Assembly (NCBI GenBank): GCA_034530875.2
Contig: JAVRCJ020000030.1
Span: 1-64,000 of the forward strand
Origin: Nostoc sp. DedSLP01
GTDB taxonomy: Bacteria; Cyanobacteriota; Cyanobacteriia; Cyanobacteriales; Nostocaceae
Direction: 5' to 3'
DNA length: 64,000 nt
Shown here: positions 1-5,356 of the stretch, in pieces
How positions within the stretch are numbered: the first letter of the stretch is position 1
How the letters are laid out: each line of letters begins with the position of its first letter
Translations under genes and position numbers: made by a program
The notes under the pieces: model-generated
The model's input: the letters and a program-made list of their open reading frames with translations, nothing else
The model's database searches: none
Told to the model about the DNA's origin: nothing

Positions 1-48
1 GAGTAGAACCATCCTCTCCATGTAATACACGGTAAATCCGCCGTTTTT

Positions 49-2547
49 ATGTTAAGTAATATTTCGCCAACGGTATCCGAAGCTTGGCACAACCGGGGTC
101 TGGCGCTAGGTAATTTCGGGCGATTTGAAGAGGCGATTGCATCTTACGACAAAGCCATACAATTAAAACCTGACGACTACTCAGCTTGGAACTACCGGGG
201 TCTGGCGCTGGCTAATTTGGGGCGATTTGAAGAGGCGATCGCATCTTACGACAAAGCCATACAATTAAAACCTGACTACTACTCAGCTTGGTACAACCGG
301 GGTAATGCGCTGAATAATTTGGGGCGATTAGAAGAGGTGATTGCATCTTACGACAAAGCCATACAATTAAAACCTGACAACTACTCAGCTTGGAACAACC
401 GGGGTAATGCGCTGAATAATTTAGGGCGATTTGAACAAGCAATCGCATCTTACGACAAAGCCATAGAATTCAAAGCTGACGACTACTCAGCTTGGAACAA
501 CCGAGGTAATGCGCTGGATAATTTAGGGCGATTTGAACAAGCAATCGCATCTTTCGACAAAGCCATAGAATTTAAAGCTGACGACTACTCAGCTTGGTAT
601 AACCGGGGTAATGTGCTGGCTAATTTGGGGCGATTTGAACAAGCGATCGCATCTTTCGACAAAGCCATAGAATTAAAACCTGACTACCACGATGCTTGGA
701 TTAACCGGGGAATTGCAGCAGGAAATGTAACTGGAAACAGGACAGATTTCTTTTTCACATTTACTTTACCTGGTGCAGCGACATATCCCAACCTCGCTTT
801 AAAATTTAATAATCGCGATCTAAACCAGCGTGGCTATGATGGTAAACTGGCAAGCTATGAGGAAGGGTTAAAGCATTGTCTACACCCAGAAGGGTCAGGA
901 AAATTGCATCAGGCGATAGGTGATGCTCATTACTTCCGAGGGCGAGGAAATTATAAAGCCCGTTATTTTTGGGACAAAGCTGTTAAAAGTTACAAAACAG
1001 CACTGCAAACTCTCACAGCAACAGATTTTCCTGAGTTGCATTTAGAGGTTTTGCAAGACTTAATTCGCGTGCAGTTAGATTTGGGTGAAACAGCCGAAGC
1101 CACAGAACTCCAGCGACAGGGTACTGATTTATTGCGGCGCTTATTAGATGAACCAAATCGGTCAGATAAAAGTAAAAAACAACTAGCTCTAAAATTTGCA
1201 TGGCTTCAACAGTTAACTGTTGATTTAGCAGTGCGGTCTGGAGATTTGCTGCAAGCGATTGAATTAGCAGAAGAAGGAAAAAATATCTGTTTGCGTTGGC
1301 TTTTAGATAGATGGAGTGAGAAAATTTCCTCTCCCAGTTTTTCAGAAATCCAACAACTGCTTAATCCTTCAGCTGCCATTATTTACTGGCATCTGAGTTC
1401 TTACGCCTTACACACCTTCGTTCTCAAACACAACGCCTCATCACCATTTGTCTTAGGAAAAACCGAGTTTGTTTCTCACCCACAACGCCTACAAGATTTT
1501 GAAGCCTGGGTGAAAAATTGGAATCAACAATACGCTGATTATCGAGACAAAGCAAAAGACGAACAAAGTCGCAAAAGCTATCCTTGGCGACTATTGATGT
1601 CAGAGAAACTTGAGCAGTTAAAAAACATCCTCAATATTTTTGCTATCGAACAAGAGTTAAACAATATTACAAACTTAATTCTCATTCCTCATCGAGATTT
1701 GCACCGCTTACCACTCCATGCAATATTTACAGATAACTTCACCATTACTTATTTACCTAGCGCCCAAATAGGTATTACCTTAAAAAGTTTGAGAGAAACA
1801 AATATCACAGCAATTCATCAATTACCTTTGCTGAGTGTAGAACATCCCGACAGTGAAGGTTTTGCTATTTTGCCTCATGCAGAAATCGAATCTGCTGCCA
1901 TTACTCAGCTATTCCAAAACCCTACACCAAAGCGAATTTATGGAGAAGCTGCGACAAATACCACAGTTAAAGCAGCCCTACAAGATAGTTACAATATTTT
2001 TCACTTCACAGGACATAGCACTTATAATTTCTATAATCCTCAAGAATCTGCTTTGGCTCTTAGCGGTAAAGACTTTCTGACTTTAGGTGAAATTTGCAAT
2101 TTCGAAAATCTGAGAATATATCAATTAGTTAGCCTTTCATCTTGTGAAACCGCCATCACTAGCAACCAAACTATCACTGCTGAATATGTCGGTTTAGTTA
2201 GTGCCTTTCTATATCAAGGCGTTACCAATGTTGTGAGTACATTGTGGACTGTGACTGATGATGCTAGTAGTTTTTTGATGATTTACTTTTACTGGCAAAT
2301 TAAGAAAGGGAAATCGCCAACATTTGCGCTGAATAAAGCAAGAAGATGGTTACGTAATTTAACATTTAGTAAACTCGAAAGAATTTATCGGGTAATCTTA
2401 GCTAAGTTACCAACTGAGGAAATACCTTTGCGACCTTTTATTAGAAGAAAACTGAATCAAATTAGTCAAATGGAGTTATCAGAAAAGAAAGAGCAGCGTT
2501 TTCAACATCCCTATTATTGGGCAGCCTTTATAATTACTGGTAACTAA
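49..2547 (+). CDS. TPR-repeat + CHAT (caspase-like) domain protein
   Basis: Six to seven 34-aa TPRs (AWxNRGxALxNLGRFEEAIASYDKAI). C-terminal CHAT motifs LIPHRDLHRLP, FHFTGHS (His), LSSCET (Cys), VVSTLW, HPYYWAAF. Confidence 0.92.
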   Translation: MLSNISPTVSEAWHNRGLALGNFGRFEEAIASYDKAIQLKPDDYSAWNYRGLALANLGRFEEAIASYDKAIQLKPDYYSAWYNRGNALNNLGRLEEVIASYDKAIQLKPDNYSAWNNRGNALNNLGRFEQAIASYDKAIEFKADDYSAWNNRGNALDNLGRFEQAIASFDKAIEFKADDYSAWYNRGNVLANLGRFEQAIASFDKAIELKPDYHDAWINRGIAAGNVTGNRTDFFFTFTLPGAATYPNLALKFNNRDLNQRGYDGKLASYEEGLKHCLHPEGSGKLHQAIGDAHYFRGRGNYKARYFWDKAVKSYKTALQTLTATDFPELHLEVLQDLIRVQLDLGETAEATELQRQGTDLLRRLLDEPNRSDKSKKQLALKFAWLQQLTVDLAVRSGDLLQAIELAEEGKNICLRWLLDRWSEKISSPSFSEIQQLLNPSAAIIYWHLSSYALHTFVLKHNASSPFVLGKTEFVSHPQRLQDFEAWVKNWNQQYADYRDKAKDEQSRKSYPWRLLMSEKLEQLKNILNIFAIEQELNNITNLILIPHRDLHRLPLHAIFTDNFTITYLPSAQIGITLKSLRETNITAIHQLPLLSVEHPDSEGFAILPHAEIESAAITQLFQNPTPKRIYGEAATNTTVKAALQDSYNIFHFTGHSTYNFYNPQESALALSGKDFLTLGEICNFENLRIYQLVSLSSCETAITSNQTITAEYVGLVSAFLYQGVTNVVSTLWTVTDDASSFLMIYFYWQIKKGKSPTFALNKARRWLRNLTFSKLERIYRVILAKLPTEEIPLRPFIRRKLNQISQMELSEKKEQRFQHPYYWAAFIITGN
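79..720 (+). repeat. 102-bp tandem repeat encoding TPR units (6 full copies + 1 partial)
   Basis: Units start at 79, 181, 283, 385, 487, 589 and 691, with near-identical DNA (GCTTGG...CGGGGT...GCATCTTACGACAAAGCCATA). Confidence 0.95.
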
Positions 2548-2612
2548 AATTTCTTCTTTGCGTCTTTGCGCCTTTGCGTGAGACATTAATAAATTGTCTC
2601 TAAAACATCCCT

Positions 2613-3011
2613 ATGAAACCTAACAATATAATTACTCTTACAGCTTTTCTTAGTGCTTTAACTCAGTTGGATGAACCATTGCCAAAGGATATTCAAACTC
2701 AGTTAAATGATATTGGTAAGGTGCTAAGAGATAATCCCGATAATATAGGAAATTTAGATGCGATCGCTGAAAGTTATCCACCCTTAGATAAACTTTATCA
2801 AAGAGAACTTACTAAAATTGAAAAAACTGGCGAACGTACTAAAGGTTTACCACCTCTGCCTTTACCAACTGAACCAACTAGGGAATTAACTAATGCAGCA
2901 ATTAATACTTTTAGCGAAAAGAATTCCGTATCTGCTGCAAAGGAAGCTGTAAACCCAAATCTACTGCAAAAGCTGACGGACTTCATTCATGGCAGAATAG
3001 TAAATGACTGA
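2613..3011 (+). CDS. Small hypothetical protein co-located with the TPR-CHAT gene
   Basis: 132-aa ORF with predicted helical segments and a central Pro-rich linker (ERTKGLPPLPLP). Its stop overlaps the next start. Confidence 0.8.
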   Translation: MKPNNIITLTAFLSALTQLDEPLPKDIQTQLNDIGKVLRDNPDNIGNLDAIAESYPPLDKLYQRELTKIEKTGERTKGLPPLPLPTEPTRELTNAAINTFSEKNSVSAAKEAVNPNLLQKLTDFIHGRIVND

Positions 3012-4407
3012 AAAAATTATTTATCCTACTATTGATTTATTCCTCTATGATTTAAAAGATGGTTTAGGAGAAGACGAAACCAGAGTAAACAATAATTGCC
3101 AAGATTTTTGTCGCAAAATATATGGCGATTTAGACAAACCAAGCTTTCAGGAAAAGTATAGAGAATTCCTGAAGTATAAAGATAATGCTGGAGATGTAAT
3201 TGAGTTGTTAGGGAAAGCCCAAACAAGAGAATTTCCATCACCTCTAGATGGCTATTACTATCCGCTGCAAATTGGTGATACTTACGCACTGCAAGTTGAC
3301 TATTCTGGTAAATTAGATGCTAACGGTAAAGCTAATGATGCTCCTCAAAATATCGACGATGCACCTTTTATAAAAATCAAAGAAGAAATTACAAATCGTC
3401 TGTCTCAGCAAACAGGTACAATTGGACAAACTTGGTTACTTTGGGGAAAACTAACCGAGACTAAAACAGAAGCCGAAGTTGAAGAGATAGCCAAAGAATG
3501 CTACACAAAAATCGTCAGCAATTATAAATGGCAACGGGATTTTATTGGCAAAGGTAAGTTAGGAGACGGAACGATTTTTGAGTTGTGGTATTGTCCAGAA
3601 AATTTAGGCGTAAATGGTAAAGAATTTTGGGATGAATTTAGAAAATTAAGCTATCACGTCTTAATTTGGTTGTTTCCCGAACATATTTCGCCTGATGAAA
3701 TGAGGAAACAAGTACAAGGTTTATATTATGATTTTTTGCGCTTATGGCAATACCGCCATAAAGTAGTTTGGTCATATTATCAAAGTCGCTATCAAAAACA
3801 TATCCTCAAAAGAGAATATATCGAAATTCAGCCATCGATTCAGCAGACAAGCGAATTACCAAAGCTACTGCAAAGCAATAACCTAAAATTAAGCAAACTC
3901 CAAGAAAGTTTGACAAAGAATTTAATCAACTTATCAGACTATACAATTGCGTTAAACTATCTAGAAAATCAAAGCCGGACAATTCAATTAAACTTAGAAA
4001 ATTATCAATCTCATTTAGCAGACATCCAGCAAAAGTACCCAAAGAGCGACTTGAAATTTCTGGAAAAGTTTAGCGAAAGTGAATTTTATGGCAAAAAATA
4101 TCAGCGACAAGTAGAAGTAGATTATGCAATTCTCAGCCCTGGATTAACTTTATTGCAAAATCTCAATAACACTATTCAAGGTATTATCGACCTAGAACAA
4201 ACCAAAAGCGATCGCACCCTCAATACCACTATAGCGATCGCAGGTGTCGGACTTGCCACCAGCCAAATAGCCTCCGCCGTCATTCTCGCCCAACCAAACG
4301 ATTATCAACAACATCTGCGGTTTCGGGCTGAAGTTTTTGGCTGGAGTGTAGGCATCGGTATCTTCTTTGCTGTGCTAATCTTTATAAGCCTCCGCTTTCG
4401 CCGCTAA
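3004..4407 (+). CDS. Hypothetical membrane protein: large soluble domain, coiled coil and two C-terminal TM helices (CorA-like layout, no GMN motif)
   Basis: 467 aa. Hydrophobic segments TIAIAGVGLATSQIASAVILA and FGWSVGIGIFFAVLIFISL with a basic tail RFRR. 8-nt overlap with the upstream ORF. Confidence 0.8.
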   Translation: MTEKIIYPTIDLFLYDLKDGLGEDETRVNNNCQDFCRKIYGDLDKPSFQEKYREFLKYKDNAGDVIELLGKAQTREFPSPLDGYYYPLQIGDTYALQVDYSGKLDANGKANDAPQNIDDAPFIKIKEEITNRLSQQTGTIGQTWLLWGKLTETKTEAEVEEIAKECYTKIVSNYKWQRDFIGKGKLGDGTIFELWYCPENLGVNGKEFWDEFRKLSYHVLIWLFPEHISPDEMRKQVQGLYYDFLRLWQYRHKVVWSYYQSRYQKHILKREYIEIQPSIQQTSELPKLLQSNNLKLSKLQESLTKNLINLSDYTIALNYLENQSRTIQLNLENYQSHLADIQQKYPKSDLKFLEKFSESEFYGKKYQRQVEVDYAILSPGLTLLQNLNNTIQGIIDLEQTKSDRTLNTTIAIAGVGLATSQIASAVILAQPNDYQQHLRFRAEVFGWSVGIGIFFAVLIFISLRFRR

Positions 4408-4447
4408 CAATTCCCTTGGCGTCTTGTGCTTATTGAATATTTTAACC

Positions 4448-5356
4448 ATGTCCATCCAACTCACAATCGAAAGCATATATACAGACGGTGCTTGCACTGG
4501 TAACCCCGGCCCTGGCGGTTGGGGTGTCGTCGTCTATTTCAGCGATGGCTCAATTCACGAAATGGGCGATGCATCCCCTCATACCACAAATAATAAAATG
4601 GAGATGCAAGCTGCGATCGCTGCCTTAAAATTTTTGCAATCATCTCAACAAGCCCAACCCATCACCCTATATACTGATAGCGAATATTTAATCAACTGCG
4701 TTACTAAGTGGGTGAAAGGCTGGAAAAACAAAGGCTGGAAAAAGTCAGATGGTAAACCCGTCCAAAACCAAGACCTTTTAGAAACCTTAGACGAACTCAA
4801 CAGCGAAAAAGTAAAATGGCAATATGTCAGAGGGCATTCTGGTAACATAGGTAACGAACGCTGTGATGCGATCGCTCGCACCTATGCCAGTGGCAAAACT
4901 CCTTCACTACAGCAAATTTCTTCCGCTGAATTTTATAAAACTTTACCTACCCAAAACCAAATAAATGTAGCAAAAGTAGCTGATTATGACGAAAATTCTA
5001 GAATAATTAACCAAAATATCCACCAAGTCACTACTTCTGCACCAGAAATAACCGTTATGGAACCATCAACTGGGCTAGCTGCAACTGCAACCGATGAAAA
5101 ACCGGCGGAAATGAGGGTTTTGCAACTCCGCAACTTGGTCGAAACTCTGCGTATAGCTGATGAAATTTCGGAAAAAGGCTACTTAATCACCAGTTCCGAG
5201 TTAGCAGATTTAATGGATGTCCACGCTAGCGCTGTTACTAGTAGAGGAGATCAATGGCGTTGGCGAAATTGGATAGTGTCACGGGTACGCCGTGAAGGAA
5301 ACCAAATTCTTTGGGAACTAGAACGCGGGGATCGAGTGGGAGGGGAAGAGGAGTAA
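4448..5356 (+). CDS. rnhA: Ribonuclease HI with cyanobacterial C-terminal extension
   Basis: YTDGACTGNPGPGGWG, TTNNKMEM, YTDSEY, VRGHSGNIGNERCD motifs. ATG at 4448 preferred over TTG at 4424. Confidence 0.95.
   Translation: MSIQLTIESIYTDGACTGNPGPGGWGVVVYFSDGSIHEMGDASPHTTNNKMEMQAAIAALKFLQSSQQAQPITLYTDSEYLINCVTKWVKGWKNKGWKKSDGKPVQNQDLLETLDELNSEKVKWQYVRGHSGNIGNERCDAIARTYASGKTPSLQQISSAEFYKTLPTQNQINVAKVADYDENSRIINQNIHQVTTSAPEITVMEPSTGLAATATDEKPAEMRVLQLRNLVETLRIADEISEKGYLITSSELADLMDVHASAVTSRGDQWRWRNWIVSRVRREGNQILWELERGDRVGGEEE

Follow-up and report, generated by a model that had tools for sequence, protein, structure and literature searches.

What does a three-gene cassette do in which a caspase-like protease, a small helical protein and a membrane protein are encoded side by side in a cyanobacterium? 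The cassette in question opens contig JAVRCJ020000030.1 (C30) of Nostoc sp. DedSLP01; the stretch that we analysed, called the window here, is 64,000 nt long and begins where C30 begins, and coordinates without a prefix are positions in it. Its first open reading frame (ORF1) as called (49..2547, + strand, 832 aa) is the 3' part of a gene for a protease joining tetratricopeptide repeats (TPR) to a CHAT domain; ORF2 (2613..3011, +, 132 aa) encodes a helical protein without known family, the predicted substrate of the protease, and ORF3 (3004..4407, +, 467 aa) a CorA/Mrs2-like protein, the predicted effector channel. The ORF coordinates bear out the co-oriented trio that an earlier note on this DNA had described, all on the + strand, with a 65-nt gap between ORF1 and ORF2 and an 8-nt overlap between ORF2 and ORF3. 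The answer that we favour, and hold to be moderately probable, is a conserved cassette in which the TPR-CHAT protease cuts ORF2, the product switches on the ORF3 channel and the cell is killed or arrested, the copy on C30 being likely impaired. Gene layout, conservation, exchange and fusion of the protease, catalytic residues and the insertion can all be read directly from the genomes. The cassette is real, conserved and unannotated, and a variant of a system type that has already been predicted. Filamentous cyanobacteria hold many caspase-like proteases without a known substrate; the cassette supplies a candidate substrate, cut site and membrane effector for a large group (988 ORF3-like clusters at 50% identity), and through it regulated single-cell death in filaments becomes directly testable.

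Conservation and turnover of the cassette

A profile of ORF3 finds matches in 68 of 401 cyanobacterial genomes, all within the order of the host and with at most five copies each. Named hosts of ORF3 homologues are filamentous or colonial genera, 13 plasmid records bear a homologue, and the present genome itself holds three trios (C30, C12 and C19); close homologues are from Nostoc, at 88-93% identity. From 150 listed ORF3 matches we picked by hand 80 loci, mostly full-length and away from contig ends, which share kinship, so that counts over them overstate independence. Synteny of the trio, which the earlier note had suggested checking across cyanobacteria, is widespread among them: a co-oriented CHAT gene lies at most 2.5 kb upstream of the ORF3 homologue in 61/80 loci (60 found by script, and L132, where it abuts), and a homologue of the small protein is present in 71/80, joined to the CHAT C-terminus in three (L112, L130 and L132). 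Four clade profiles of the small protein detect one another, with one match in reversed controls. At nine of the 80 loci, eight of them divergent, the CHAT protease is replaced by a Peptidase_C14 caspase with His and Cys, which has a listed nSTAND1 domain in 6/9 cases and WD40 repeats in most. Altogether, a caspase-fold protease adjoins the ORF3 homologue in 70/80 loci; the other 10 comprise three at a contig edge, one TPR-ORF3 fusion, one small gene with ORF3 and five with ORF3 alone. Because two unrelated sensor-protease designs serve the same ORF2-ORF3 pair, protease activity is the likely input of the cassette.

The 11 closest Nostoc loci include seven that are broken, through genes split or shifted in frame, an inserted transposon or reduction to remnants (in metagenome bins, misassembly may account for some of this), three that are intact and one cut by a contig end. 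Turnover, plasmid carriage and the swap to STAND sensors favour a role in conflict. Among viral contigs, none of 92 pattern matches was a relative. Some caspase partners have unusual C-terminal parts, namely TPR with RelA/SpoT (L074:4380-10118), nSTAND1 with the CARF-like Cas_APE2256 (L086:4641-8102) and nSTAND1 with trypsin (L051:3508-6465). Immediately upstream of one plasmid-borne trio (L050:1-2871) are genes with TnsA and ATP-binding domains, a Tn7-like arrangement of which the trio is perhaps the cargo.

The protease

ORF1 carries six 34-residue TPR repeats (82..700, +), a candidate sensor, and a caspase-like CHAT domain (1606..2544, +; aa 520-832) that matches Pfam PF12770 with an E value of 3e-44 and 152 bits against a cut-off of 24. 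The repeat sensor and CHAT domain proposed in the earlier note are confirmed by these matches, and the catalytic pair that it had placed at 2014-2016 and 2143-2145 corresponds to His656 and Cys699, with Ser next to the His. This Ser is no sign of decay, because Ser and Ala after His also occur in dyad-bearing CHAT domains: among the 72 of these loci with both His and Cys, a set that includes two opposite-strand neighbours and some near-duplicates, the residue is Gly in 49, Ser in 14 and Ala in 9. The alignment had 79 rows, of which six were left out: three that were fragmentary or frameshifted, one because of unreadable bases, one that is not a CHAT, and the lone paralogue. In the other 73, readable rows the dyad is kept 72 times, as had been guessed from the single sequence.

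A paralogue of ORF1's clade, about 1250 aa long and without partners, is found in 54/60 genomes of the family (for example G000:C5:274742-278629, L003; others are L145-L174), and neither the small gene nor ORF3 lies within 1.5 kb of it in any of 30 loci. At its catalytic site, 23 readable rows (7 were not parsed) have His in 11 cases, Tyr in 9 and another residue in 3, and the paralogue is likely a pseudoprotease with a conserved role. Because the dyad stands in 72/73 rows of the trios and the His in 11/23 of the partner-less paralogue, activity appears to be retained where the partners are present, and the protease of the cassette to be selected for activity. The CHAT tree was a quick one with five rows omitted, and served only for defining clades. 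Just upstream of the paralogue sits a 232-aa gene that shares its N-terminal domain.

As to specificity, the residue D2151 with which separase reads an Arg at P1 corresponds, according to the account in PMC9729208, to K670 of Csx29. This position, eight residues past a conserved Trp, is Ser741 in ORF1. An acidic residue three to four positions past the CHAT Trp was rejected as a predictor of Arg specificity, five clade A proteases lacking it and the separase residue being located elsewhere. In clade D, 10/11 CHAT domains are neutral three to four positions past the Trp and are paired with non-basic ORF2 loops, a weak lead.

The small partner as candidate substrate

The model of ORF2 is all-helical, with a predicted local distance difference test score (pLDDT) of 86, and forms one folded unit with a loop between packed helices. 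This loop (aa 72-85; 2826..2867, +), predicted to be exposed, contains E74-R75-T76-K77-G78 (Arg75 codon 2835-2837); it is the sole internal loop of low confidence, and confidence is lowest at aa 75-77. On the model, it is likely the site of the protease cut, after Arg75 or Lys77, and as a candidate substrate ORF2 ranks ahead of ORF3. A basic motif in the first 16 loop residues, captured by a regular expression written post hoc, after the sequences were viewed, is present in 20/22 clade A ORF2 proteins versus 2.7% of control windows. Elsewhere the loops have Arg-Ala/Gly in most caspase-linked proteins and Arg-x-Pro or Arg/Lys in clade C. Past the loop the most conserved residue is Asn94 (2892..2894, +), found in 22/22 clade A rows, and the Asn of the post-loop helix is kept in 22/22, 8/8 and 8/9 rows of three clades. 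A fold search with the ORF2 model gave no PDB match at E<=0.001, and neither ORF2 nor ORF3 has a match in Pfam (beyond coiled-coil noise), NCBIfam or PADLOC.

A membrane protein with a predicted CorA-like fold

The ORF3 model (pLDDT 91.5, predicted template modelling score 0.84) has an alpha/beta domain, a helical hairpin and a long stalk entering the first of two transmembrane (TM) helices, and no run falls below pLDDT 50. The two terminal TM helices seen by the earlier note recur as hydrophobic C-terminal helices in both sequence and model. Its guess of a CorA-like fold agrees with the models, which predict this fold as they do the exposed loop of ORF2, and with weak matches in Foldseek and VIA-align; CorA or Mrs2 stands in all 24 listed Foldseek rows, at E 6.9e-4 to 2e-2. 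Atlas neighbours of ORF3 are MJ1566_N (0.91) and DUF3422 (0.88), and searching PDB sequences with the profile of ORF3 returned coiled-coil noise alone. The GMN selectivity filter, which in the CorA/Mrs2/ZntB superfamily follows TM1, is found in 0/130 and 0/61 ORF3 homologues, and any GxN in 6/130 and 5/61. Judged from its model, ORF3 appears to be CorA-like and not a Mg2+ transporter. Two homologues have unusual architectures: an 820-aa protein with a C-terminal trypsin-like domain, downstream of two or three CHAT genes (L126:1265-3724), and a 706-aa TPR-ORF3 fusion with no protease nearby (L121:5585-7702).

Mode of action and alternative explanations

A question remains, how would these parts work together? 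In the scheme that we favour, sensing of a trigger by the TPR repeats would activate the CHAT domain, which would cut ORF2 in its exposed basic loop at Arg75 or Lys77. The cut product would open an oligomeric ORF3 channel, ORF2 being the activator, and open ORF3 would collapse the membrane potential, such that the infected cell dies or arrests; the role would be anti-phage. ORF2 is favoured as activator over inhibitor because intact ORF3 persists at six loci where the small gene is frameshifted or absent (L007, L057, L065, L101, L120 and L129). A more specific version, which we regard as possible and would put forward tentatively, is a cyanobacterial immune system distinct from CATRA. In it TPR-CHAT or caspase-STAND sensors, each able to stand in for the other, would cut a small zymogen, and the freed Asn-helix fragment would serve as the protein ligand that opens a filter-less CorA-fold channel (peptide-gated CorA). 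If true, peptide-gated CorA would give multicellular bacteria a death cascade of two steps, from protease to pore.

Several points weigh against an immune channel gated by cleaved ORF2. No PADLOC model matches ORF2 or ORF3, and the kinship among the 80 loci has been mentioned. The post hoc loop motif is not universal, the clade D loop being hydrophobic-Gly, and 2-3 of the 9 caspase-linked small proteins have no obvious Arg. Specificity for Arg finds no support at the position that reads P1 in separase, because ORF1 has Ser741 where separase has D2151. The match to CorA is weak, with TM-scores of 0.2-0.3 and root-mean-square deviations of 16-18 A in the top Foldseek rows; in VIA-align four CorA-family chains, at Z 9.5-11.2, are on a par with generic helical bundles, of which the best has Z 12.8, and the CorA-family alignments cover the stalk and TM part only. 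The orphan ORF3 genes may be silent. Finally, several homologues, in different families, are found at one constant site next to rnhA, the RNase H gene, a position that also fits a housekeeping or signalling role.

The alternative that survives best, which we nevertheless rate as unlikely, has the opposite sign: full-length ORF2 would keep the ORF3 channel closed and cleavage would free it, an antitoxin destruction as with Csx30 or CalpT. The 8-nt overlap, with the translational coupling of ORF2 and ORF3 that it implies, would suit such a pair, as would an ORF2 that models as a single folded unit with its loop between packed helices. The sequence distances of ORF2 and ORF3 co-vary (rho 0.68, permutation maximum 0.08), a pattern that shared ancestry alone can yield. 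The six loci with intact ORF3 and no usable small gene argue against a required inhibitor, and in the three loci with an ORF2 fusion its partner is the protease rather than ORF3.

Next comes regulated stress or developmental signalling, in which the protease would gate a non-lethal ion or solute channel; to us this too seems rather improbable. HetF-like CHAT proteases act in filament development. The constant place next to rnhA that homologues take on the chromosomes of several families, the confinement of ORF3 to the host's order in the 401-genome sample and the near-universal ORF1 paralogue are all consistent with signalling. Against it, the cassette is patchy, multi-copy, carried on plasmids and often broken, it has been swapped onto caspase-nSTAND1-WD40 sensors, and in L126 a trypsin domain is fused to ORF3.

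Less probable again is that the protease cuts ORF3 itself, in gasdermin-like manner, with ORF2 as an adaptor or ligand-binding subunit. CATASP is given as a ligand-binding domain in the list of 10.64898/2026.10.19.760177, and TPRs are fused to ORF3 in L121; yet the ORF3 model has no long disordered cytoplasmic segment, and the conserved basic loop sits in ORF2. That the genes are chance neighbours or a wholly dead remnant without joint function is scarcely credible, and for the cassette family the chance-neighbour reading is already largely refuted: the protease gene of this copy is interrupted, but the trio with an intact dyad is kept across many families, and ORF2 and ORF3 are full-length here.

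Relation to known systems

The CATRA ternary conflict system, made up of caspase/TPR, CATASP and CATRA-N/C, was reportedly defined by Burroughs and Aravind in 2020. As there, a caspase-family protease fused to TPRs is followed here by a small gene and then a larger partner; unlike CATRA, the cassette also uses C14 caspase-nSTAND1 sensors and fusions of CHAT with the small protein. The CATRA partner ends in CorA-like TM helices. The earlier note had considered membership in CATRA/CATASP, and the Pfam models for CATASP, CATRA-N and CATRA-C do not match. CATASP (PF20271) has no match to ORF2 at E<=1, in its own genome or in 201 genomes of the order, the control genomes also giving 0 so that sensitivity is unproven. 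Likewise, CATRA-N (PF20269) and CATRA-C (PF20270) match neither ORF3, nor its own genome, nor its homologues (0/94 and 0/99), no positive control having matched either. A CATRA-C match in 1/201 order genomes was discarded as a false match to a Wzc-like coiled coil, and four Streptomyces plasmids held no true CATRA locus for comparison. No description of the cyanobacterial trio was found in the literature searched, which did not extend to the original CATRA paper, a work that may cover it. CATRA is presented as a caspase-dependent ternary conflict system in PMC8195603, and among the protease-associated modules listed in 10.1101/2025.11.14.688446 CATASP stands without a mark for experimental study.

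The latter source names EACC1, Pepco, an alpha/beta-hydrolase and MBL as protease-activated death effectors and gives a bacterial caspase that cuts its effector hydrolase at R-G (10.1101/2025.11.14.688446). The cassette resembles these systems in combining a variable sensor-protease with a constant small substrate that has an exposed cut site, here a predicted one; it differs in that there the cleaved protein is the toxin, whereas here the likely effector is a third protein, CorA-like and anchored in the membrane. ORF2 matches no Pfam family of the EACC1, Pepco, hydrolase or MBL effectors. With Craspase of type III-E CRISPR, in which the TPR-CHAT protein Csx29 goes with Csx30, ORF1 shares the His/Cys dyad and, as a candidate feature, TPR-controlled activation, and Csx29 provides its closest solved structures (E 1e-5 with the single sequence, 1e-16 with a profile). 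However, ORF1 reaches 52.8 bits against an NCBIfam Csx29 cut-off of 300, no cas gene is found among the scanned neighbours, and the partner is not a sigma-factor regulator as with Csx30. Bacterial gasdermins with a CHAT or caspase protease are a case of protease-gated membrane attack; ORF3, in contrast, is an alpha-helical protein with two TM helices, for which neither Pfam nor the fold searches gave a gasdermin match. Its model shares with CorA, Mrs2 and ZntB an alpha/beta domain, a long stalk and two C-terminal TM helices, while ORF3 differs from them by the missing GMN, a larger N-terminal domain and no CorA sequence match in Pfam or NCBIfam. A CorA-family protein is named in PMC12255297 as the effector of SAM-AMP type III CRISPR defence; ORF3 differs in being tied to a protease and a small protein, not to a nucleotide signal.

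An insertion element in the protease gene of this copy

The earlier note had assumed a whole ORF1 and an intact copy. Instead, the protease gene is split between contigs C14 and C30 by an insertion element of about 2.4 kb. The right end of the element occupies 1..77, its terminal inverted repeat stopping at 77, and ORF1 takes its ATG at 49 and its first 10 codons from it; native sequence runs from 78, beginning with a 7-bp target-site duplication (78..84, +) whose second copy stands before the left end of the element at G000:C14:205113. Window positions 1-77 are identical to G000:C27:80-156, and C14 and C2 end in the terminal repeat found at 77, there in inverted orientation. C14 terminates with 231 codons, counted from the ATG, of the same TPR gene, followed by the left end of the element. 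On C14 and C30 alike the element is bordered by one and the same 7-base sequence, the two gene parts share one reading frame, and each matches single intact genes in relatives. Three sequencing-run assemblies, possibly the source of this genome and in that case not independent, have a 2,396-bp contig that stops at window 77 and whose depth is roughly double the local value (900 vs 482, 886 vs 474 and 380 vs 196).

The part displaced to C14 comprises a strongly amphipathic N-terminal helix, a helical domain without known family and one TPR, and the native promoter of the protease gene is likewise parted from ORF1. Because the element splits the protease gene, this copy of the cassette is likely impaired, and because the C30 copy is interrupted, the paralogous trios on C12 and C19, or a relative with an intact copy, are better suited for study. 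The body of the element is absent from the assembly, and relatives hold only its ends or short derivatives, with no family assigned. The pair C2/C27 repeats the pattern with a second copy of the element, a different 7-bp duplication and a target gene that resembles, by eye, a tyrosine integrase. Short elements that share these ends lie at C7:200975-201086 and C16:25961-26072.

Neighbouring features

The C30 neighbours of the trio are rnhA and housekeeping genes. A scan for promoters and terminators stayed at chance level (11 seen, 11.3 expected). The RNase H gene at 4445-5356 has a C-terminal extension of about 150 aa and is also found 3' of ORF3 homologues in several families. At 2550..2583, in the gap between ORF1 and ORF2, lies a dispersed short intergenic repeat that is present on many contigs of the genome and stands outside the system.

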